A stretch of 64,000 bases of DNA from assembly GCA_027468165.1 (NCBI GenBank), contig GCA_027468165.1_3951.1, one strand, 5' to 3'. How positions within the stretch are numbered: position 1 is the first letter of the stretch; every line of letters starts with the position of its first letter. The translations under genes were made by a program, and so were the position numbers. The stretch is from a phage. This document shows positions 12,325 to 19,672 of the stretch, one piece after another. The notes under the pieces were generated by a model. The model was not told the DNA's origin and did no database searches. It saw nothing but the letters and a program-made list of their open reading frames with translations.

Positions 12325-13740
12325 ATGAGCGAGTTATTTAAACATGCGCACCTTCATACAGGTCGAACTGAAAATGGTGCTGTAAACCATACTTCATCAA
12401 TGTCTGCTCTGGTAGACTTCTACAAAGCCGCTGGCTCAAGCCGTAGCAATGTAGAAATCTTACCAGACCTGTTCTACAAAGCTTTGCGTGAGGATGTTGA
12501 TGTTGCAGTTCGTATTTTACTGCATATGCGAGATGTACGAGAAGGTATGGGCGAGCGTAAAGCTTTCCGAACTGTTTTACTTCAAGCAATTGAAGATAAG
12601 GTTTTAGAGCCTACACAGGTTCTTCGCATCATGGATAAGATTGCAGAACTTGGTCGTTTTGATGACTTCAAAATCTTCGTAGGTACTCGTTTTGAGACAG
12701 ATTCCTTCAAACATTTAGAAGCAGCATTACTAGACCCTGCAACAGCAGGTTTAGCAGCTAAGTGGTTGCCACGAGTAAAACCACGCCACAAACAGTTTGT
12801 AAAACGTTTCTGTAAGTTTGCAAACTTGAGTGAGAAGGAGTATCGCACACTGTTATCTGCACTGTCTGATACGGTTGAGCAAAAAATCTCTGCTAATGAT
12901 TTTGGTAAGATTGACTACAGCAAGATTCCTTCACTCGCTGCTGCACGTTACCAAAAGCTCTTTAACCGTAAAGATGGGGAACGTTACAAAGCTTATATCG
13001 AGTCACTCTCAAAAGGTGAGGCTAAGATTAACGCTGGTGCTGTTTACCCATACGATGTGATTAAATCTATTAAGTATGGTAATGCAGATGTTGCTAATGA
13101 GCAGTGGAAAGCACTTCCAAACTGGATGGCAGAAGGTGAAAACATCTTGTGTATGACTGATGTCTCAAGCTCAATGTCTTGGGTGAATCTTGGTTCAATC
13201 ACTGCCCTTGATATTGGTGTATCCCTTGCCTTGTATGTAGCAGAACGCAATACAGGTTGCTTTAAAGATGAGTTAATGGTCTATTCAACAAACCCTCATT
13301 TCATTGAACTGAGTGGTGATTTACGAAACCGTCATCGTCAGGTGATGCGACATGTTGAATATGGTTCAACTAACTTACAAGCAGCTTTTGACCGCATTCT
13401 TGAGGTAGGTAAGCGAAACAAATTGACTCAGAAAGATATGCCAAGTAAGCTTATCATCTTCTCTGATATGGAGTTTAATCAGGTTGATGGTGCAAATGGT
13501 CGTACAAACTTTGAAGCAATTCAGAGTAAGTACAAAAAAGCTGGATATGAGATGCCACAACTAGTATTCTGGTACTTAGCAAACCGTAATGGTACTTGCG
13601 AAGTGTCTGTTAAGGATAATGGTGTAGCAATGGTATCAGGGTTCTCTCCAGCCACTTTAAAAGCTCTGCTTGGTGGTGAGAAGTTTGACCCAATCAGCGT
13701 AATGCTCAAAGCAGTAATGATTGACCGTTACATCTGGTAA
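12325..13740 (+). CDS. von Willebrand factor A (vWA) domain protein with MIDAS motif; N-terminal ~270 aa unassigned (possibly TROVE-like)
   Basis: DxSxS motif (CMTDVSSSMS) followed by a vWA-like beta strand (KLIIFSDMEF); strong SD; sits immediately upstream of the tRNA array. Confidence 0.65.
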   Translation: MSELFKHAHLHTGRTENGAVNHTSSMSALVDFYKAAGSSRSNVEILPDLFYKALREDVDVAVRILLHMRDVREGMGERKAFRTVLLQAIEDKVLEPTQVLRIMDKIAELGRFDDFKIFVGTRFETDSFKHLEAALLDPATAGLAAKWLPRVKPRHKQFVKRFCKFANLSEKEYRTLLSALSDTVEQKISANDFGKIDYSKIPSLAAARYQKLFNRKDGERYKAYIESLSKGEAKINAGAVYPYDVIKSIKYGNADVANEQWKALPNWMAEGENILCMTDVSSSMSWVNLGSITALDIGVSLALYVAERNTGCFKDELMVYSTNPHFIELSGDLRNRHRQVMRHVEYGSTNLQAAFDRILEVGKRNKLTQKDMPSKLIIFSDMEFNQVDGANGRTNFEAIQSKYKKAGYEMPQLVFWYLANRNGTCEVSVKDNGVAMVSGFSPATLKALLGGEKFDPISVMLKAVMIDRYIW

Positions 13741-13752
13741 AAAGTTTTAAAA

Positions 13753-13787
13753 AGGGTATTGACAATGTGTTTGATACCCTTTAATAT
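13753..13787 (+). promoter_or_regulatory. Putative promoter: A-tract, TTGACA 13759-13764, 17 bp, TAATAT 13782-13787
   Basis: Near-consensus sigma70 elements; likely drives the tRNA array. Confidence 0.55.
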
Positions 13788-13842
13788 GTTCTACATAGAA
13801 ACGAAATGAGAGCTTTTCTAAGATACTGAAAATATTTTAAAA

Positions 13843-13878
13843 AAGTTCTTGACAACCACTAAAAAATAATGTTAAAGT
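13843..13878 (+). promoter_or_regulatory. Putative promoter: A-tract, TTGACA 13849-13854, 18 bp, TAAAGT 13873-13878, inverted repeat AACCACT/AGTGGTT
   Basis: Read directly. Confidence 0.5.
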
Positions 13879-13904
13879 GGTTACATAGAGTTTGAAAAGT
13901 TTAT

Positions 13905-13981
13905 CTCTGTTTAGCTCAGCTTGGTAGAGCGTTCCGTTTGGGGCGGTAAGGCCGGAGGTTCAAGTCCTCCAACAGAGACCA
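13905..13981 (+). tRNA. tRNA-Pro (anticodon UGG)
   Basis: Manual fold: acceptor CTCTGTT/AACAGAG, D-arm GCTCAGCTTGGTAGAGC, anticodon loop TTTGGGG, T-arm GGAGG-TTCAAGT-CCTCC, CCA encoded. Confidence 0.7.
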
Positions 13982-13988
13982 AATTAAT

Positions 13989-14066
13989 GTTCCAGTAGAC
14001 AAAATGGTATAGTCACCACTCTTTCAAAGTGGATATTTGAGGGTTCAAATCCCTTCTGGAACGCCA
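13989..14066 (+). tRNA. tRNA-Glu (anticodon UUC)
   Basis: Acceptor GTTCCAG/CTGGAAC, anticodon stem-loop CCACT-CTTTCAA-AGTGG, T-loop TTCAAAT, CCA encoded. Confidence 0.75.
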
Positions 14067-14073
14067 GTTTTGA

Positions 14074-14146
14074 CAGAAGACCAATTGCAGCAAACTTAAT
14101 CTTATTCATCTGACACGAAATCGGACAAAGAAGAGATTTGGTCTGG
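14074..14146 (+). repeat. tRNA-spacer element E1 (5' CAGAAGACC ... 3' GGTCTGG)
   Basis: Conserved termini able to pair (AGACC/GGTCT); starts 8 nt after tRNA-Glu and ends 12 nt before the next tRNA. Confidence 0.5.
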
Positions 14147-14157
14147 TCATTAAGAAT

Positions 14158-14234
14158 TGCGGGTATAGAGAAAGGGCGTCTCACATGTCTCATTAGCATG
14201 GTATCGGCAGGTTCGACTCCTGCACCCGCCTCCA
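14158..14234 (+). tRNA. tRNA-Met (anticodon CAU), initiator-like
   Basis: Anticodon stem-loop CATGT-CTCATTA-GCATG, T-arm GCAGG-TTCGACT-CCTGC, acceptor with unpaired 1:72 position; D-arm atypical. Confidence 0.55.
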
Positions 14235-14240
14235 ATTTTG

Positions 14241-14300
14241 CAGAAGACCGTATGCAGCAATAAACTACTTTTTGCGGATAAAAGAAAAAACACGGTCTGG
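14241..14300 (+). repeat. tRNA-spacer element E2 (CAGAAGACC ... GGTCTGG)
   Basis: Same terminal motifs and same placement relative to flanking tRNAs as E1. Confidence 0.5.
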
Positions 14301-14311
14301 CAATGTATTAA

Positions 14312-14385
14312 GGTTAGGAAGCACATAAGGTATGTGCGGTCGCCTGTTAAGCGAATGGCACAGGGTTCGAATCCCTGACTAACCG
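14312..14385 (+). tRNA. tRNA-Asn (anticodon GUU)
   Basis: Acceptor GGTTAGG/ACTAACC, D-stem GCAC/GTGC, anticodon loop CTGTTAA, T-arm CAGGG-TTCGAAT-CCCTG. Confidence 0.65.
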
Positions 14386-14396
14386 CAAATTTAAAT

Positions 14397-14484
14397 GTGT
14401 CGTTATCCCGTAGATGGTAGCGGTGGGGACTGTAAATCCCTTGTCATTGAGACTCGGTAGGTTCGACTCCTACACGGCACACCA
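14397..14484 (+). tRNA. tRNA-Tyr (anticodon GUA), long variable arm
   Basis: Acceptor GTGTCGT/ACGGCAC, anticodon loop CTGTAAA, ~14-nt variable arm, T-arm GTAGG-TTCGACT-CCTAC, CCA encoded. Confidence 0.7.
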
Positions 14485-14545
14485 ATTTTGAGAGGGCTAT
14501 TTAGCCCCTCCCTTAAAGGGTTCTTACGAGTATCCTTTAAAGGAG

Positions 14546-14619
14546 CAGAAGACCAAATACAGCAAGTTACTTAAAATTTCAAGCTAATTTAATTTTGAAA
14601 AATTTAAAACTTGGTCTGG
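14546..14619 (+). repeat. tRNA-spacer element E3 (CAGAAGACC ... GGTCTGG)
   Basis: Same terminal motifs. Confidence 0.5.
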
Positions 14620-14632
14620 CTCAACAAATTTA

Positions 14633-14763
14633 CAGAAGACCGTTTACAGCAAAACTTAAACAATCTATTTCTCGGTAAAGAAAAGGCGAAGGTTCGATTC
14701 CTTCACTCGGCAGATGTCGAGTTGGTGTAATGGTAGCACTTAAGATGATAAACAACGGTCTGG
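14633..14763 (+). repeat. tRNA-spacer element E4 (CAGAAGACC ... GGTCTGG) enclosing a tRNA-like fragment
   Basis: Same terminal motifs; interior contains T-arm and acceptor-like hairpins. Confidence 0.5.
14688..14739 (+). other. tRNA-like fragment in permuted order (T-arm + 3' acceptor strand, then complementary 5' acceptor strand + D-arm); no anticodon arm
   Basis: GAAGG-TTCGATT-CCTTC then ACTCGGC, 4-nt gap, then GTCGAGT + TGGTGTAATGGTAGCAC; the two acceptor strands are complementary. Confidence 0.3.
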
Positions 14764-14866
14764 TAATTATCTTTGCAGTAGCTTATGTGGCTAATTATGT
14801 CGTCCCATGAGTGCCGATGAATTTCCTTAGCATGATTCTAGATTAGCTTAATAGGAAATGACTCTA

Positions 14867-14887
14867 CAGACCCTTTAGCAAGGTCTG
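14867..14887 (+). repeat. Minimal spacer element E5 (CAGACC-CTTTAGCAA-GGTCTG)
   Basis: Shares the AGACC/GGTCT closing stem and GCAA motif with E1-E4. Confidence 0.4.
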
Positions 14888-14914
14888 CGTAGGTTACTGC
14901 AAAGATAATTTAAT

Positions 14915-14990
14915 GGAAGTGTAGCAGAATGGTGATGCGGCAGACTTTTAATCTGACAGGCGACGGGTTCGAATCCCTCCACTTCTACCA
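14915..14990 (+). tRNA. tRNA-Lys (anticodon UUU)
   Basis: Acceptor GGAAGTG/CACTTCT, anticodon loop CTTTTAA, T-loop TTCGAAT, CCA encoded; T-stem weak. Confidence 0.6.
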
Positions 14991-14994
14991 ATAT

Positions 14995-15071
14995 GGTTCA
15001 GTCGCAGATAAGGTAATGCAAGGGTCTCATAAGCCCTATGAATGTGGGTTCGATTCCCATCTGAACCTCCA
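14995..15071 (+). tRNA. tRNA with anticodon CAU (elongator Met or Ile-lysidine)
   Basis: Acceptor GGTTCAG/CTGAACC, anticodon stem-loop AGGGT-CTCATAA-GCCCT, T-loop TTCGATT, CCA encoded. Confidence 0.65.
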
Positions 15072-15072
15072 A

Positions 15073-15148
15073 GCTGGTATAGTTAAGAAGGTTATAACAC
15101 TCCCCTGATAAGGGAACATCGGTGGTTCGATTCCACCTACCAGTACCA
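15073..15148 (+). tRNA. tRNA-Ile (anticodon GAU)
   Basis: Acceptor GCTGGTA/TACCAGT, anticodon loop CTGATAA, T-arm GGTGG-TTCGATT-CCACC, CCA encoded. Confidence 0.7.
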
Positions 15149-15157
15149 ATTTCAATA

Positions 15158-15192
15158 AAGTTGTTGACATTGATATGTGACCACTTTATAGT
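15158..15192 (+). promoter_or_regulatory. Putative internal promoter: A-tract, TTGACA 15164-15169, 17 bp, TATAGT 15187-15192
   Basis: Near-consensus sigma70 elements. Confidence 0.5.
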
Positions 15193-15484
15193 AACTAAAA
15201 TACTTCATAATATGTATAATTCAAACACCAATACATGAGCGTTAGACGTAACACAATGTGGGGAAATTTGTTGTACATATTCTGAATAGTTTTCGTTGCG
15301 TAGCGTCTATTTTGCAAATTTAAAATAAATGCAAACGACAATGTTTTTCTGGCAGTAGCTTGATAGGCTAAACACCAGTGAGGTCTTCCAATCCCTCATC
15401 AAAGAATTTGGCGTACTCGCCCACGGTATGATTAATAAGGTGGGCATCTTTAAGGGTTTTTTAAGAGAGTCTTTAAAGATTAAT

Positions 15485-15561
15485 GCACCCTTAGTTCAAC
15501 TGGACAGAACAAATGACTTCTAATCATTAGGTTACAGGTTCGAATCCTGTAGGGTGTGCCA
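15485..15561 (+). tRNA. tRNA-Arg (anticodon UCU)
   Basis: Acceptor GCACCCT/AGGGTGT, D-stem GTTC/GAAC, anticodon stem-loop AATGA-CTTCTAA-TCATT, T-arm ACAGG-TTCGAAT-CCTGT, CCA encoded. Confidence 0.75.
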
Positions 15562-15576
15562 GTTTAAGAGGTATAT

Positions 15577-15918
15577 ATGAAGAACGGCTCTATAGGAGAA
15601 ATTGCAACTCAACTTGAGTTTATGAAGATGGGATATGAAATCTACTCACCAGCAACTGACAATGCTAGGTATGATTTTATAGCTCACAAAGACGGTAAAC
15701 TTTATAAAGTTGAAGTTAAATCCACCTCAAGGAAAGTTAGAGATGTATGGAAAGTGCAACTAAAGAGAGTTCATTCAAATAGAAGTTCAAACAGAATAGC
15801 TAACTTTGATAACACGTTAGTTGATTTCTTATCAGTTTATATTGAACCTCTTGAAAAGGTTATAATCCTTAAAGCTAAAGACGTTACTTCAAAAACTGAG
15901 TTAAGCTTAAGGGTTTAG
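15577..15918 (+). CDS. Small PD-(D/E)xK nuclease-like protein (113 aa) embedded in the tRNA array
   Basis: Motif D(FIA)...KVEVKS resembling the PD...(D/E)xK catalytic core; strong SD. Confidence 0.5.
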   Translation: MKNGSIGEIATQLEFMKMGYEIYSPATDNARYDFIAHKDGKLYKVEVKSTSRKVRDVWKVQLKRVHSNRSSNRIANFDNTLVDFLSVYIEPLEKVIILKAKDVTSKTELSLRV

Positions 15919-16027
15919 ATTATCTTCTGTAAGGAGGTGGTCTGTATCTCATGTTTCCAGAACATGTAAATAATCTGAGAAGGGGCTTTACAGTGTTGCG
16001 AAAATACGGTAAGCTTCGAATTATAGT

Positions 16028-16110
16028 ATGGGACGATGTTAAGACTCTAAGGCATGAGCAACGGCTTCCAACACCGTTTCAAAGGGGTTCAACTCCTCCG
16101 TCCCATGCCA
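16028..16110 (+). tRNA. Atypical tRNA-like gene, possibly tRNA-Trp (anticodon CCA) with enlarged D-region
   Basis: Perfect acceptor ATGGGAC/GTCCCAT, anticodon stem-loop ACGGC-TTCCAAC-ACCGT, T-loop TTCAACT, CCA encoded; D-region ~7 nt too long. Confidence 0.4.
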
Positions 16111-16122
16111 AGTCTTATTAGG

Positions 16123-16210
16123 GGTAGGTAGCGGCTAATGGTAGCCAAACTGTCTTGAAAACAGTTGCCACTGTAGAGATACGGTGAGGGTTCGACTCCT
16201 TTACTTACCG
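16123..16210 (+). tRNA. tRNA-Ser (anticodon UGA), long variable arm
   Basis: Anticodon stem-loop ACTGT-CTTGAAA-ACAGT, ~20-nt variable arm, T-loop TTCGACT. Confidence 0.6.
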
Positions 16211-16465
16211 CCTAATAAGATTTAAAGCCAAGCTTCATTCGGATGTTGCTTTGGTATCCCTCGTGTATTGTCGTACACAAGTAAAGCACCTAGTAGGTGT
16301 CACGGAGAAGAGATAATATCAAGCTCTCCAAAGGTTCTAGTCACCGGATTAAACAAGACTATGCAAAGGCCTATTTAGGTCTTTTTAGAGGGCTTCTAAG
16401 GTTATTACAGCTTGTTGTGGAACCTTGTTGCTTAGGTTCTTAGAAGTTCTCTAAAAAGATTTAAT

Positions 16466-16543
16466 GGGAGATTGACGGTAATTGGTAAACCTATCTCGCT
16501 TAGAACGAGATGTTTGAGGGTTCGAATCCCTTGTCTCCTACCA
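16466..16543 (+). tRNA. tRNA with anticodon UAG (Leu), short variable region
   Basis: Acceptor GGGAGAT/GTCTCCT, anticodon stem-loop TCTCG-CTTAGAA-CGAGA, 5-nt variable region, T-arm GAGGG-TTCGAAT-CCCTT, A73, CCA encoded. Confidence 0.6.
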
Positions 16544-16550
16544 AATTAAT

Positions 16551-16626
16551 GCAGGTGTAGCAAAATGGTTATGCGGCTGACTCTTAATCAGTAAGACGAT
16601 GGGTTCAATTCCCTCCACCTGTACCA
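16551..16626 (+). tRNA. tRNA-Lys (anticodon CUU)
   Basis: Acceptor GCAGGTG/CACCTGT, anticodon stem-loop GCTGA-CTCTTAA-TCAGT, T-loop TTCAATT, CCA encoded. Confidence 0.65.
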
Positions 16627-16632
16627 GACATT

Positions 16633-16708
16633 GGGGATGTAGTTTACATGGTTAAAACATAAGTTTTGCAAACTTAAGTACAGGGTTCAATTCCCTGCTT
16701 CTCCACCA
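16633..16708 (+). tRNA. tRNA-Ala (anticodon UGC)
   Basis: G3:U70 wobble pair in acceptor stem, D-stem GTTT/AAAC, anticodon stem-loop TAAGT-TTTGCAA-ACTTA, T-arm CAGGG-TTCAATT-CCCTG, CCA encoded. Confidence 0.75.
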
Positions 16709-16714
16709 ATTAGT

Positions 16715-16789
16715 GCATCCATAGTTTAAACGGGAAAATTACAGTCTTCCAAACTGAGGTTGAGGGTTCGATTCCCTCTGGATGCTCCA
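16715..16789 (+). tRNA. tRNA-Gly (anticodon UCC)
   Basis: Acceptor GCATCCA/TGGATGC, anticodon loop CTTCCAA, T-arm GAGGG-TTCGATT-CCCTC, CCA encoded. Confidence 0.7.
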
Positions 16790-16796
16790 AATTAAT

Positions 16797-16873
16797 GCTG
16801 CTTTCGTATAATTGGCTATTACACATCCCTTGTAAGGATGGAAATGCAGGTTCGAGTCCTGTGAGCAGCACCA
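16797..16873 (+). tRNA. tRNA-Thr (anticodon UGU)
   Basis: Acceptor GCTGCTT/GAGCAGC, anticodon stem-loop CATCC-CTTGTAA-GGATG, T-arm GCAGG-TTCGAGT-CCTGT, CCA encoded. Confidence 0.75.
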
Positions 16874-16968
16874 ATTCAGAGGTCAAGTGAAAGACCGCTG
16901 GTGTCAACTGAAGACCGTAACAAATTCCACGGAGTTGAGTTAGCGGCACAACTTCAGACCTCTTTCAT

Positions 16969-17043
16969 ACTCGCTTAGTTTATATGGTAAAACACCACCC
17001 TTACAAGATGAAGAAAAAGGTTCAAGTCCTTTAGTGAGTACCA
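16969..17043 (+). tRNA. tRNA-Val (anticodon UAC)
   Basis: Acceptor ACTCGCT/AGTGAGT, D-stem GTTT/AAAC, anticodon loop CTTACAA, T-arm AAAGG-TTCAAGT-CCTTT, CCA encoded; anticodon stem weak. Confidence 0.6.
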
Positions 17044-17044
17044 T

Positions 17045-17122
17045 GTTCCAGTATCCCAATTGGTAGAGGATGCAAGCTCAAACCTTGTACTAGTGACGGT
17101 TCGAATCCGTCTTGGAACACCA
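17045..17122 (+). tRNA. tRNA with anticodon CAA (Leu), short variable region
   Basis: Acceptor GTTCCAG/TTGGAAC, anticodon stem-loop GCAAG-CTCAAAC-CTTGT, 6-nt variable region, T-arm GACGG-TTCGAAT-CCGTC, A73, CCA encoded. Confidence 0.6.
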
Positions 17123-17236
17123 ACTTTAGGAGAGCACTGTGAGTGATAAGTCAATAGCAAAAAAGTTTAGAGCGTCATACCTAAACAGACGTAAAAACAG
17201 AGATTGTGAAAAACTGTATGGTGTTCTTGTAGGTAA

Positions 17237-17312
17237 GCAGGATTAGTTCAAATGGATAGAGCAACAGTCTACGAAGCTGTTAATAGGGGTTCGAATCCCT
17301 TATCCTGCGCCA
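17237..17312 (+). tRNA. tRNA-Arg (anticodon ACG)
   Basis: Perfect acceptor GCAGGAT/ATCCTGC, anticodon stem-loop ACAGT-CTACGAA-GCTGT, T-loop TTCGAAT, CCA encoded. Confidence 0.75.
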
Positions 17313-17331
17313 ATTTAAAGAGGCTATTTAG

Positions 17332-17889
17332 ATGAGATATTTGAAGTATGCTTCATGGATTTTCTTAGCTTTGTTAGAGCCATTTGCAGCAATCTTAGCA
17401 GTTATCTTAGCACCTTTCGTAGTTCCATTTTACAGTGAGAAGAAAGGACACTTACCTTTCGGCTTCAGATGGATGGAAACATACGACAACCCAATTGATG
17501 GTGATAAAGGTCATGTCGAACGGTGGGCTAAGATTAGAAAGATTGGTAAGCTCGGTGTCTACATGCAGAGAGTTGGATGGCTCTGGAGAAACAAAGCTTA
17601 TAACTTCTCTTACCATGTGTTAGGAAGAGATGTAAAAGATGTTACTAAGTGGAAAGGTAATATCAATGTAAGTTCTAACCCTGAAGATAATCAGACAGGT
17701 TATCTCCTAATGTGGAACAGTAATGCTTGGGGGTTATTCGCTTTTATCCCATCAATTAAAGTCTTTGGTAAACAATTCTACTGGAGAATTTATGTTGGGT
17801 GGAAACTTAAAAGTGTTGTCCCAGAAGAAAGAGCATTCTCAAGGGAAAGAGTTATGTTGGCATTCTTTATTCATCCACTGAGAAAGTAA
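17332..17889 (+). CDS. Membrane protein with hydrophobic N-terminus (185 aa) embedded in the tRNA array
   Basis: ORF track; N-terminal segment WIFLALLEPFAAILAVILAPFVVPF; ATG 20 nt after tRNA-Arg. Confidence 0.5.
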   Translation: MRYLKYASWIFLALLEPFAAILAVILAPFVVPFYSEKKGHLPFGFRWMETYDNPIDGDKGHVERWAKIRKIGKLGVYMQRVGWLWRNKAYNFSYHVLGRDVKDVTKWKGNINVSSNPEDNQTGYLLMWNSNAWGLFAFIPSIKVFGKQFYWRIYVGWKLKSVVPEERAFSRERVMLAFFIHPLRK

Positions 17890-17897
17890 AGATTTAA

Positions 17898-17973
17898 AGG
17901 GGATTAGTTTACAAGGTTAAAACCTCGGTCTTTGAAATCGAAGAAGTTGGTTCAATTCCAACATCCCCCGCCA
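17898..17973 (+). tRNA. tRNA-Gln (anticodon UUG)
   Basis: D-stem GTTT/AAAC, anticodon stem-loop TCGGT-CTTTGAA-ATCGA, T-arm GTTGG-TTCAATT-CCAAC, CCA encoded; position 1:72 unpaired. Confidence 0.65.
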
Positions 17974-17975
17974 AT

Positions 17976-18054
17976 GCTCCATTACTCCAATTGGCAGAGA
18001 GGCCAGACTTAAAATCTGTGTTATGTATCGGTTCGAATCCGATATGGAGTACCA
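17976..18054 (+). tRNA. tRNA with anticodon UAA (Leu), short variable region
   Basis: Acceptor GCTCCAT/ATGGAGT, anticodon loop CTTAAAA, 7-nt variable region, T-arm ATCGG-TTCGAAT-CCGAT, A73, CCA encoded. Confidence 0.6.
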
Positions 18055-18059
18055 AATTT

Positions 18060-18135
18060 AGCGGTATAGCATAACTGGCAATGCAACAGTCTCTGAAGCT
18101 GTCTTATTAAGGTTCAAATCCTTATGCCGCTGCCA
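18060..18135 (+). tRNA. tRNA-Gln (anticodon CUG)
   Basis: Acceptor AGCGGTA/TGCCGCT, D-stem GCAT/ATGC, anticodon stem-loop ACAGT-CTCTGAA-GCTGT, T-arm TAAGG-TTCAAAT-CCTTA, CCA encoded. Confidence 0.7.
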
Positions 18136-18166
18136 CTTCTAAGGGTTCTTACGAGAGTCCTTAAAT

Positions 18167-18242
18167 GTGGCCTTATCATAAATGGTAATGACCCATGCTG
18201 TGAACATGGTCTATACGGGTTCAAATCCCGTAGGTCACCCCA
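18167..18242 (+). tRNA. tRNA-His (anticodon GUG)
   Basis: Acceptor GTGGCCT/AGGTCAC, D-stem TCAT/ATGA, anticodon stem-loop CCATG-CTGTGAA-CATGG, T-arm ACGGG-TTCAAAT-CCCGT, C73, CCA encoded. Confidence 0.75.
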
Positions 18243-18247
18243 ATTTA

Positions 18248-18324
18248 TAGTCCAAGTAGCTTATATGGTTAAAGCGCGTGTCTGAAAAACATGAGAAGAG
18301 GGTTCAAATCCCACTGGACTACCA
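18248..18324 (+). tRNA. tRNA-Phe (anticodon GAA); ends uncertain
   Basis: D-stem GCTT/AAGC, anticodon stem-loop CGTGT-CTGAAAA-ACATG, T-loop TTCAAAT; acceptor pairing admits two registers. Confidence 0.55.
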
Positions 18325-18340
18325 ATTTCAAAGGTGCTTA

Positions 18341-19075
18341 ATGAAAGAGATGACAGAACAAGGTAAGGAGATTTTTAATCTCTTAAAAACTGGTAGAGGG
18401 TTTTCTAATCCCCTTATTACTGGTGCAGCAGTTCTCGGTGGAACCGTAGCTGCCTCTACATCACTTGTAAGCTCTATTAGCTCTGTAACAGACCCTACAA
18501 TAAAGGATAAACTTGTTGCGGCTGGACTTACAACAGTTCTGCTTAACAGCTTTACAACGAGTCTGACAAGCACTACATCAACCACTAAGACACTGACAGA
18601 TTACGGTCAAAAGTCCATTGATGAGTTTTCATCACGTATGCAGGTAGCAAAAGGATATTCCAATGTTATGGGTGCAGCAGGAGAACAAGTCGGTTGTACA
18701 CCATTTAGTGGTATTATGGGTGTTGCTACAGAGTACGGTCAAAAAGCTATTGACACAATTAACAGTACACTAGATGGTGTTAATGATGTATTAAGTGACT
18801 TACAAGATGCTATTGATAAAGGTCTTGATACTGTTTCTGATTTAGCTAATCAGGCTGTTAGTAAGATTAATGAAGGTATTTCGAAGATTACAGCTTATGC
18901 AAATGAAGTTGTGCAGATGATTGAAGAAGAAGCTGCCCTTATTGCAGAGTACCTTAAAACGAATATCAATGGGTTCTTAGCAGGTATCTTACCAGACTGG
19001 TTTGATGATGCTTGTAAAACTGGTGTGATTGACACTATTGCAACACCAGAAATGAAGAGCGCATTACAGAAATAA
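18341..19075 (+). CDS. Hypothetical Ser/Thr-rich protein (245 aa from the ATG at 18341)
   Basis: ORF-track frame trimmed to the first ATG downstream of tRNA-Phe (MKEMTEQ...). Confidence 0.5.
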   Translation: MKEMTEQGKEIFNLLKTGRGFSNPLITGAAVLGGTVAASTSLVSSISSVTDPTIKDKLVAAGLTTVLLNSFTTSLTSTTSTTKTLTDYGQKSIDEFSSRMQVAKGYSNVMGAAGEQVGCTPFSGIMGVATEYGQKAIDTINSTLDGVNDVLSDLQDAIDKGLDTVSDLANQAVSKINEGISKITAYANEVVQMIEEEAALIAEYLKTNINGFLAGILPDWFDDACKTGVIDTIATPEMKSALQK

Positions 19076-19076
19076 T

Positions 19077-19169
19077 GGAAGATTAACCCTAAAAGGTAAG
19101 GGAGCAGTTTGCTAAACTGCCAGTAGCTGAGAAATCGGTGTACCAGTTCAAGTCTGGTATCTTCCTCCA
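19077..19169 (+). tRNA. tRNA-Ser (anticodon GCU), long variable arm
   Basis: Acceptor GGAAGAT/ATCTTCC, anticodon stem-loop GCAGT-TTGCTAA-ACTGC, ~21-nt variable arm, T-arm ACCAG-TTCAAGT-CTGGT, CCA encoded. Confidence 0.6.
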
Positions 19170-19173
19170 ATTT

Positions 19174-19249
19174 GAATCCGTGACAGAAATGGCTATGTGC
19201 CTGTCTGCAAAACAGGTTTATAAGGGTTCGAGTCCCTTCGGATTCTCCA
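19174..19249 (+). tRNA. tRNA-Cys (anticodon GCA)
   Basis: Perfect acceptor GAATCCG/CGGATTC, anticodon stem-loop CCTGT-CTGCAAA-ACAGG, T-arm AAGGG-TTCGAGT-CCCTT, U73, CCA encoded. Confidence 0.7.
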
Positions 19250-19286
19250 AATTATTTTACTCTCTCTCAATTAAAATAATAATAAT

Positions 19287-19346
19287 GCCCTGCTATAAGT
19301 ATTCTTCCTTTCGCTACCGAAGAGTATTTTTAGACAGGGCTTTTTT
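19287..19346 (+). terminator. Terminator-like structure (GCCCTG ... CAGGGC followed by TTTTTT)
   Basis: Closing GC stem plus T6 after the tRNA array. Confidence 0.5.
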
Positions 19347-19411
19347 ACAGAGTTATACTTTATAAGAAGCCTTATACAGTATGTCTCTGACGTACATTGT
19401 GGTTTCTCCTT

Positions 19412-19436
19412 GACGGTCTCTGTACCGTCTTTTTTA
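19412..19436 (+). terminator. Intrinsic terminator (GACGGT-CTCTGT-ACCGTC followed by TTTTTT)
   Basis: Perfect 6-bp stem plus T-run. Confidence 0.7.
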
Positions 19437-19471
19437 AGGGGAAACATAATTAATTATTTGGAGAAAACATA

Positions 19472-19672
19472 ATGAGTGAGAACGTTTATAAAGAACTTTA
19501 TGAAGCCAATAAAAAGCTGGAATTTATGCAGACTACTATTATGGCAATTGCAGACAGATTGTCTGTAGCAACAGGTATTGATATTAAAGAAGCATCTATG
19601 GATGCACTTCTTGATGCTGTTGATGCAAAGTTCGAAGTTAAGAAAGAAGAGACTGCTACAGACTCTGAATAA
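19472..19672 (+). CDS. Hypothetical small protein (66 aa) upstream of terminase
   Basis: ORF track; SD GGAG. Confidence 0.45.
   Translation: MSENVYKELYEANKKLEFMQTTIMAIADRLSVATGIDIKEASMDALLDAVDAKFEVKKEETATDSE

Follow-up and report, generated by a model that had tools for sequence, protein, structure and literature searches.

A probable free-standing homing endonuclease gene of the I-Ssp6803I family in the tRNA array of a FelixO1-like phage

Our analysis of a small gene lodged between two phage tRNA genes indicates that it is most likely a homing endonuclease gene of the I-Ssp6803I (PF11645) family, free-standing and without an intron, that occupies an intergenic slot of a Felixounavirus tRNA array. 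The window, that is, the whole stretch of 64,000 nucleotides of phage DNA that was analyzed, carries in this region what its sequence matches identify as the tRNA array of a FelixO1-like phage (Ounavirinae, Felixounavirus); the array matches 313 Ounavirinae phage records with 80-99% identity. The original prediction had placed a 113-aa ORF between tRNA-Arg(UCU) and the next tRNA, and its coordinates proved to be exact (Table 1). The felixounavirus array is highly mosaic, with many slots holding alternative alleles and occupants. We also observed that tRNA-Asp has been lost from the array of the window.

Table 1. Coordinates of the ORF and of the features around it (positions in the 64,000-nt window)
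Feature	Position	Strand	Description
tRNA array	13905-19249		25 tRNA genes
Sigma-70-like promoter (candidate), TTGACA-17-TATAGT	15164..15192	+	11/12 consensus matches; kept in relatives
tRNA-Arg(UCU)	15485-15561	+	directly 5' of the ORF; ARAGORN
Inserted block	15562..15927	+	~365 nt = leader + ORF + 9 nt trailer
Shine-Dalgarno motif AAGAGG	15566..15571	+	5 nt 5' of the ORF ATG; read off the sequence
ORF	15577..15918	+	113 aa, start ATG, stop TAG; ORF listing
Conserved non-coding spacer	15923..16122	+	~97% identical in >240 relatives
tRNA-like relic	~16028-16111		3' part of the spacer
tRNA-Ser(UGA)	16123-16212	+	next tRNA 3' of the ORF; ARAGORN

The ORF is present as a single copy in the window and has a G+C content of 33% (window, 39%). 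Its start codon follows the CCA end of tRNA-Arg(UCU) at a distance of 15 nt, and its stop codon lies 204 nt before tRNA-Ser(UGA). The short 5' leader, TTTAAGAGGT, is similar to that of the 70%-identical copies described below, TTTAAGGTGA. Among the ORF and the copies of felixounavirus relatives, dN/dS was 0.04-0.13 in every comparison, therefore the ORF codes for a protein under purifying selection, and the frame was intact in all 13 Ounavirinae copies examined. The Pfam score given below, the 721 homologous cluster representatives recovered by an exhaustive HMMER search (E<=1e-3) and the low dN/dS indicate that this is more than a chance reading frame. The sigma-70-like promoter in Table 1, a consensus match, is the nearest candidate for a transcription unit comprising tRNA-Arg, the ORF and tRNA-Ser. 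Since this conserved promoter lies upstream of tRNA-Arg(UCU), the ORF is probably co-transcribed with that tRNA and expressed from the tRNA precursor transcript. A second, 56-aa ORF at 15951-16121 was considered as a gene and rejected: it has no family matches in Pfam or PHROG and shows a 1-nt indel with respect to other phages, and it was taken as non-coding.

The product of the 113-aa ORF is predicted to be a PD-(D/E)xK nuclease of the I-Ssp6803I family. It matches Pfam PF11645 (PDDEXK_5; I-Ssp6803I family) with 65.5 bits against a gathering cutoff of 26.1 (E 6.5e-18), over profile positions 6-115 of 138, and PF11645 is present in 98 of the 100 homologues found. The PADLOC model for homing endonucleases ('HEase') also matches the protein (E 8.5e-9), and the only solved structure that phmmer found by sequence was PDB 2OST (E 9e-7), that of I-Ssp6803I, the founding member of PF11645. 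In PHROG, the protein matches phrog_5018, whose function is unassigned there, and more weakly phrog_6591, annotated as 'Holliday junction resolvase' (E 5e-4). NCBIfam gave no meaningful match, and no GIY-YIG domain was found in the protein, the Pfam and PHROG matches being solely of PD-(D/E)xK type.

An AlphaFold2 model built on 81 homologues reached a pLDDT of 93.6 and a pTM of 0.85. In a Foldseek search of the PDB with this model, the four chains of 2OST occupied ranks 1-4 (chain A: TM 0.84, rmsd 2.0 A, 110 columns), and the next families were Hjc, SPARDA DREN domains and EcoRV, all with TM <=0.62. Four residues are putatively catalytic, namely E8 of the N-terminal helix, D33, E46 and K48, the last two in the triplet E46-V47-K48. 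The broad homologue alignment was too diverse for use; in the 81 homologues, D33, K48 and D83 are invariant, and in the 20 closest homologues E8 and E46 are invariant as well. Besides, the YD and QVK of 2OST are the counterparts of D33 and K48 in the alignment. In this sense, the D...EVK arrangement and the restriction-endonuclease-like fold that had been suggested for this ORF are both borne out, the former by D33 and E46-V47-K48 and the latter by the family match, the 2OST match and the structure prediction for which the original prediction had called.

An intron-encoded gene or an interrupted tRNA was also considered and rejected. No group I intron was detected at E<=1 in positions 13500-19500, where the Rfam scan yielded only tRNAs and noise. 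The tRNAs flanking the ORF are whole and uninterrupted, and the gene has its own Shine-Dalgarno motif in the intergenic spacer.

The distribution of the gene among relatives is sporadic. At least 80% of the 561-bp interval from tRNA-Arg to tRNA-Ser is covered in only 9 of 257 matching records, and in the remaining records, among the matches listed, only the 3' 200 bp aligned. With tblastn, the protein was found in nine Ounavirinae records, and in IMG/VR none of the 28 felixounavirus loci carries the gene. Thus it has a frequency of about 3.5% in relatives and is missing from about 96% of them. Where the window has ~365 bp, ORF-less relatives have the 41-bp segment AATAGTTAGCAGATTGCTTAGACGACCTTATCGGGTCTCCG; their order is tRNA-CCA, then AATAGTTAGCAGATTGCTTAGACGACCTTATCGGGTCTCCG, then TGTAAGGAGG, and the junctions are clean. 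The conserved spacer that follows the ORF is the right-hand homology flank of the insertion.

The copies of relatives are not all located at the same place. LNA6 has a 94% copy at the site of the window, and the contig L054 from Logan has a 96% copy in the same arrangement; in the window, this insertion point leaves 15 nt between tRNA-Arg and the ORF and 204 nt between the ORF and tRNA-Ser. Copies of about 70% identity, found in eight phages (NJ12, EC106, Barry, Tribble, LF110P1, SPJ41, SWJM-02 and Suspvirus CHB7), lie at a second point, 22 nt 3' of tRNA-Ser(UGA). A 58% copy in two metagenomic contigs with a related array (L052 and L053) marks a third one, between the conserved spacer and tRNA-Ser(UGA), and its stop codon overlaps the 5' end of this tRNA. 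The copies of the window, the ~70% copies and the 58% copy are differently placed, so there are three homologous genes at three positions around one tRNA gene. One target motif common to both insertion sites was considered and rejected: a search for the 41-bp segment across the whole window, allowing up to 12 mismatches, gave no second copy. In the genus Vipunavirus, pVp-1 and VPG01 carry a homologue, and the relatives VPT02, VF16 and KIT04, whose flanks are 84-94% identical, were not among the tblastn matches; judging from these matches alone, this group also appears to be polymorphic for presence and absence.

The slot of the ORF is also used by genes of another kind. In three related loci (L012, L025 and L028), HNH endonuclease genes (phrog_2255, E 4e-39) stand between the UCU tRNA and the 41-bp segment, and in two others (L042 and L054) different HNH genes are found between tRNA-Met and tRNA-Ile. 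These HNH ORFs of relatives were recognized by PHROGs and not by Pfam. The slot is itself a hotspot. The presence/absence polymorphism that the original prediction had proposed as a test of mobility is clearly observed, with the gene in few of the records that match its interval, in three positions, and with HNH genes in the same slot; the sporadic distribution and the varied positions support the mobile, free-standing homing endonuclease that it had suggested. A gene without a nuclease fold and in a fixed position, which would have spoken against that suggestion, is not what was found. By its distribution, then, the ORF behaves like a mobile, selfish-type gene. The copies at the site of the window are fairly old relative to their flanks, as dS between those of the window, LNA6 and L054 is 0.16-0.38. 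Given this age and its rarity, the gene is not visibly sweeping through the population, which counts against the homing explanation.

The tRNA alleles next to the different copies were also compared. In seven of seven genomes, the ~70% copy is linked to an 87-nt tRNA-Ser(UGA) allele sharing just 68% identity with the resident allele of 90 nt, and this 87-nt allele occurs in none of the 31 examined genomes that lack the ~70% copy. Such a pairing would look like a cassette formed by an endonuclease gene and a resistant or foreign target gene. The tRNA-Ser(UGA) allele of the window is the common one, identical to that of ORF-less relatives. With respect to CL1, the tRNA-Arg(UCU) of the window, LNA6 and L054 has compensatory changes in the anticodon stem. 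We considered this tRNA-Arg(UCU) as an immunity allele and rejected it, given that it is also present in the ORF-less L019, L020, L033, L037 and L038, and that of L019 is identical to the window's. The flanks of the window copy are distinguished from ORF-less genomes only by the missing 41 bp. Since the flanking tRNA alleles are identical to those of ORF-less relatives, self-immunity would be explicable only by the missing 41 bp, a source of protection that we offer as a conjecture, and this too counts against the homing explanation. Regarding the target of the window enzyme, the replaced junction is the most economical guess.

What we infer from these observations is that the protein cleaves DNA, which target it has and that the gene homes. 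The ORF would be transcribed with the tRNA precursor from the candidate promoter and translated from its own Shine-Dalgarno site, giving a protein that is probably oligomeric, as I-Ssp6803I is. In a mixed infection with an ORF-less relative, this protein would cut both strands of the relative's homologous DNA in a Mg2+-dependent manner. The break would lie at the insertion point or close to it, whether at the junction between tRNA-Arg(UCU) and the 41-bp segment or in the neighboring tRNA-Ser(UGA) region. Repair by recombination, with the ORF-bearing genome as template, would then transfer the gene, together with flanking markers, to the recipient. The window gene is, in these terms, an ordinary and rarely annotated member of a known selfish-gene class; free-standing PDDEXK_5 genes have already been included among the homing endonucleases of Jug phages (PMC12880540).

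In order to place the gene in its family, we gathered every homologue context obtainable from GenBank, metagenomic contigs, IMG/VR, a metagenome scan and one bacterial genome. The set comprises eight further GenBank phage groups, with T5-like Vibrio phages and phages of Streptomyces, Arthrobacter, Acinetobacter, Klebsiella, Enterococcus and Exiguobacterium, and long metagenomic contigs picked solely by length; the search for related loci gave one and then four loci in viral contigs and none in genome contigs. Of 33 non-redundant lineages, 32 have the gene at most ~175 nt from a tRNA gene, nearly always within a tRNA array, the lone exception being a 1.5-kb contig. Moreover, tRNA-Ser(UGA) abuts the gene in 15 of the 33 lineages, and in 13 of those 15 the stop codon lies between -35 and +8 nt from the first base of this tRNA. 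The share of tRNA-Ser(UGA) among the 314 tRNAs of the surveyed loci is 6%, which gives a binomial P of 3e-8 for enrichment downstream and 1e-6 for either side, values whose significance is overstated as the lineages are non-independent. On a Paenibacillus chromosome, the order is serS, PDDEXK_5 and tRNA-Ser(UGA), with a 3-nt gap. Other abutting tRNAs are tRNA-Leu(UAG) (three cases), tRNA-Tyr(GUA) (two cases) and tRNA-Ser(GCU). A general enrichment for tRNAs with a long variable arm (Ser, Leu and Tyr) was borderline in the first 19 contexts and was abandoned with the larger set, which pointed specifically to tRNA-Ser(UGA).

A literature search of limited range found no published link of PD-(D/E)xK endonucleases to phage tRNA clusters or to tRNA-Ser, and, as far as can be told, the association of PDDEXK_5 genes with tRNA arrays and tRNA-Ser(UGA) is new. 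A possible explanation, which we propose tentatively and which may well prove wrong, is that the PF11645 branch in question constitutes a mobile lineage of nucleases specialized on tRNA-Ser(UGA), a near-universal gene: it would recognize the gene (less likely the tRNA), insert at its edge, and move with or beside a copy of tRNA-Ser(UGA) among unrelated phage families and even into bacterial chromosomes. If this were true, the nuclease would contribute to the assembly and rearrangement of tRNA arrays in phages, as a PD-(D/E)xK counterpart of SegB with an isotype-specific target, and the three positions that the felixounavirus copies take around one tRNA-Ser(UGA) would record this process at different moments.

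Other functions have to be weighed against a homing endonuclease gene, and we regard all of them as less likely. The original prediction had offered tRNA or RNA processing, or a role in anti-defense, as alternatives, and these received no direct support from the sequence analysis. One proposal, which extends the homing explanation and does not replace it, is that a homing-type endonuclease is kept for the benefit of the phage: breaks in the array would drive recombination, shuffling or amplification of tRNA genes against host defenses that target tRNAs, or would exclude competing phages. There is a precedent in SegB, which cuts within tRNA genes and drives an amplification of tRNA-Tyr that leads to escape from Septu (PMC13096335), and the high mosaicism of the felixounavirus array, including the loss of tRNA-Asp in the window, would fit, as would the strong purifying selection on the ORF. 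However, no tandem amplification is seen in the window, where the ORF and each of the neighboring tRNAs are single-copy, and the low frequency of the gene in relatives speaks against a strong general benefit. We consider this proposal unlikely.

The association with tRNA-Ser(UGA) could also have a functional origin. A nuclease acting on tRNA and paired with a tRNA gene might cleave the tRNA-Ser(UGA) of the host or of a competitor, or process the phage tRNA precursor, the adjacent phage tRNA being resistant or being the product; the linkage between the ORF and tRNA-Ser would then reflect function and not homing. The striking and specific abutment described above (15 of 33 lineages, for a tRNA that makes up only 6% of the total) would agree with it, as would the constant association of the ~70% sister copy with a divergent tRNA-Ser allele of its own, and the PD-(D/E)xK fold does include enzymes that cleave RNA, the tRNA-splicing endonuclease being an example (PMC3424549). 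Nevertheless, DNA is the substrate of the sole characterized member of the family, an endonuclease that no other structure approaches in similarity to the model, and the window protein retains a complete metal-binding D/E-x-K motif. The gene is missing from about 96% of close relatives with the same tRNAs, so it is not needed for tRNA maturation. Furthermore, HNH homing endonuclease genes occupy the same slots, and the window ORF is not beside a special tRNA-Ser allele. A tRNA nuclease thus seems quite unlikely to us.

It is hardly probable, in turn, that the protein serves the phage as a housekeeping nuclease acting on DNA structures, for instance in the resolution of Holliday junctions, in recombination or in packaging. 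Some homologues are annotated as 'Holliday junction resolvase', the weak phrog_6591 match points the same way, and archaeal Hjc appeared in the fold search with a TM of ~0.6. Yet Pfam Hjc gave no match to the protein at E<=1, and I-Ssp6803I fits the model far better (TM 0.84, against <=0.61 for Hjc structures). A core enzyme of DNA metabolism would not be absent from ~96% of near-identical relatives, nor would it shift among tRNA slots, and this function offers no rationale for a location in tRNA arrays in 32 of 33 lineages. Finally, it is very improbable that the ORF is the inert remnant of a homing endonuclease gene, preserved without any cutting activity: the copies at the site of the window are rare and not visibly spreading, and the protein is ~35 residues shorter than I-Ssp6803I, but the frame is intact in 13 of 13 copies, the catalytic residues are conserved with dN/dS at 0.04-0.13, and 113-125 aa is the normal, typical length in this phage subfamily.

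To our knowledge, only one PD-(D/E)xK homing endonuclease of the I-Ssp6803I family has been characterized, and it comes from an intron of a cyanobacterial tRNA gene. The locus described here suggests that phages harbor a large branch of the family whose genes are free-standing and associated with tRNA arrays, above all with tRNA-Ser(UGA). It would provide, beside SegB and structurally unrelated to it, a second example of endonucleases colonizing phage tRNA clusters. These clusters are now understood as counter-defense loci against host immunity that cleaves tRNAs. Natural felixounaviruses with and without the ORF, which can be obtained and have E. coli K-12 or Salmonella as hosts, together with the three insertion points, constitute a simple test system that bears on how the enzyme recognizes its target, how it avoids self-cleavage and what role it has in the evolution of mosaic tRNA arrays; the association with tRNA arrays and tRNA-Ser(UGA) makes the question of the target directly testable. 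Additionally, a sequence-specific nuclease of 113 aa with a long target would be of interest to enzyme engineers.

Among known systems, the nearest relative is I-Ssp6803I, the homing endonuclease of a group I intron in the tRNA-fMet gene of Synechocystis, a tetramer that reads a 23-bp pseudo-palindrome and whose homologues have been described as generally cyanobacterial (PMC3384342); PF11645 in tRNA-fMet introns is also reported elsewhere (PMC13011429). The two proteins share the Pfam family and the fold (TM 0.84, rmsd 2.0 A, 26% identity) and the D...(E/Q)-x-K catalytic arrangement, and both are small and belong to mobile elements associated with a tRNA gene. They differ in that I-Ssp6803I is intron-encoded and cyanobacterial, whereas the window gene is free-standing, intergenic and of phage origin, and in the associated tRNAs, which are Arg(UCU) and Ser(UGA) for the latter and fMet for the former. 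The window protein has E46 where I-Ssp6803I has Q, and with 113 aa against ~150 aa it is missing ~35 C-terminal residues, so that its oligomeric state and the length of its recognition site may differ from those of I-Ssp6803I.

Hjc, SPARDA DREN and EcoRV, the next-best structural neighbors (TM 0.55-0.62), have the same PD-(D/E)xK core, but their fit is much poorer than that of I-Ssp6803I, they have no Pfam match to the ORF protein, and their genomic context and biology are different; the tetramer of SPARDA DREN is similar to that of I-Ssp6803I (bioRxiv 10.1101/2025.04.08.647717). The HNH genes of Felixounavirus and T5-like tRNA regions (phrog_2255) resemble the window gene in occupying the same slot after the UCU tRNA, besides other slots of the array, and in being sporadic. 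They belong to the His-Me finger superfamily, unlike the PD-(D/E)xK product of the window ORF, and they appear frequently in Felixounavirus annotations, in contrast to the PDDEXK_5 gene, which is rare and usually labeled 'hypothetical'.

The closest functional analogue of the window ORF is SegB of T4 and T6, an analogue in niche and not a member of the family. SegB is a free-standing GIY-YIG homing endonuclease located in the tRNA cluster and absent from close relatives; its 27-bp site includes the conserved T-psi-C motif of tRNAs, and it leads to near-100% inheritance of the T4 tRNA region (PMC2330249). It co-localizes with tRNAs across phages without isotype preference and amplifies tRNA genes against tRNA-cleaving defenses (PMC13096335). 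Both genes encode endonucleases, have no intron and lie between phage tRNA genes, and the same biology is proposed for them. The activity of SegB has been shown experimentally, while the window enzyme is known here from its sequence and a model. Their folds and catalytic mechanisms, GIY-YIG in one case and PD-(D/E)xK in the other, are unrelated, and in contrast to segB, with no isotype preference, the PDDEXK_5 family is biased to tRNA-Ser(UGA).

The tRNA array in which the nuclease gene lies is mosaic throughout, both in the window and in the aligned relatives. Single tRNA slots, for example those of Ile, Arg(UCU), Ser(UGA), Leu(UAG) and Ala, are occupied by alternative, strongly divergent alleles, and the combinations of these alleles vary among phages that are otherwise ~95% identical. 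We also found that tRNA-Asp(GTC), placed directly 3' of tRNA-Tyr in the relatives CL1, LNA6, Barry and others, is missing from the window; its deletion is clean (~84 nt), and the 3' end of tRNA-Tyr now abuts what lies beyond the tRNA-Asp CCA in those phages. Many relatives carry an odd tRNA-like gene in place of tRNA-Arg(UCU), with the sequence GGGGCGTATCTCAGCGGTCTTCTAAACCGCC...GGGTTCGAGTCCTGCCGCCTCGACCA. Its anticodon loop reads UCU and its extra arm is long; ARAGORN did not call this gene.

HNH endonuclease genes are present in the tRNA array of some felixounaviruses and absent from that of others. One occupies the slot of the window ORF, after the UCU tRNA, and another is placed between tRNA-Met and tRNA-Ile; the Pfam search did not detect them. 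Two further protein genes, a DUF7338 gene and a 265-aa ORF, lie inside the window array and, in contrast to the nuclease gene, keep fixed positions in the relatives examined.

Coordinates of the array features and of the compared loci
Feature	Location	Remarks
tRNA array	window 13905-19249	
tRNA-Asp(GTC) deletion point	window 14480-14490	between tRNA-Tyr 14397-14484 and tRNA-Lys 14915; from comparison with relatives
Candidate sigma-70 promoter	window 15164-15192	TTGACA-17-TATAGT
Spacer, ORF to tRNA-Ser(UGA)	window 15923-16122	
56-aa ORF	window 15951-16121	
tRNA-like segment	window ~16028-16111	
DUF7338 gene, 185 aa	window 17332-17889	Pfam E 8e-62; phrog_2143
265-aa ORF	window 18278-19075	homologues in relatives (244 aa) with DUF7217
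HNH endonuclease genes	L028 8312-8659; L012; L025; L042 1744-2229; L054 413-1051	phrog_2255
Odd UCU tRNA-like gene	L002 (NJ12) ~1880-1965; L028 8213-8297	
Odd UCU tRNA-like gene, further loci	L013, L016-L018, L023, L024, L026, L031, L032	
Paired CUA tRNAs	L051 1548-1697	metagenomic contig
tRNA with four-base anticodon	L043 1735-1817	metagenomic contig
Locus of the chromosomal nuclease homologue	L064 1626-3520	Paenibacillus sp. GCA_035645235.1

The spacer between the nuclease ORF and tRNA-Ser(UGA) is ~97% conserved across more than 240 relatives, and its 3' part can be folded like a tRNA: ATGGGAC pairs with GTCCCAT in an acceptor stem of 7 bp, and a T arm and a GCCA end are present as well. The anticodon-loop-like sequence is TTCCAAC in the window and CTCCAAA in relatives, and reads as CCA (Trp); tRNA-Trp is absent from the window array. 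Neither ARAGORN nor Rfam called this segment, and its fold z-score is only -1.3. It is overlapped by a 56-aa ORF that differs from the relatives by a 1-nt indel and for which no homologues were found. Also inside the array, 3' of tRNA-Ile, there is a near-consensus sigma-70 promoter candidate, which is kept in relatives; the number of promoter-like sites in the region does not exceed the shuffled expectation.

Homologues of the nuclease were also found elsewhere, and metagenomic phage tRNA arrays that bear them contain unusual tRNAs, namely two neighbouring tRNAs with the amber-reading anticodon CUA in L051 and a tRNA with the four-base anticodon ccta in L043. A chromosomal homologue (39% identity) is encoded in Paenibacillus between serS (seryl-tRNA synthetase) and a tRNA-Ser(UGA) located 3 nt downstream; NCBI names it 'group I intron-associated PD-(D/E)XK endonuclease', yet it does not lie in an intron.
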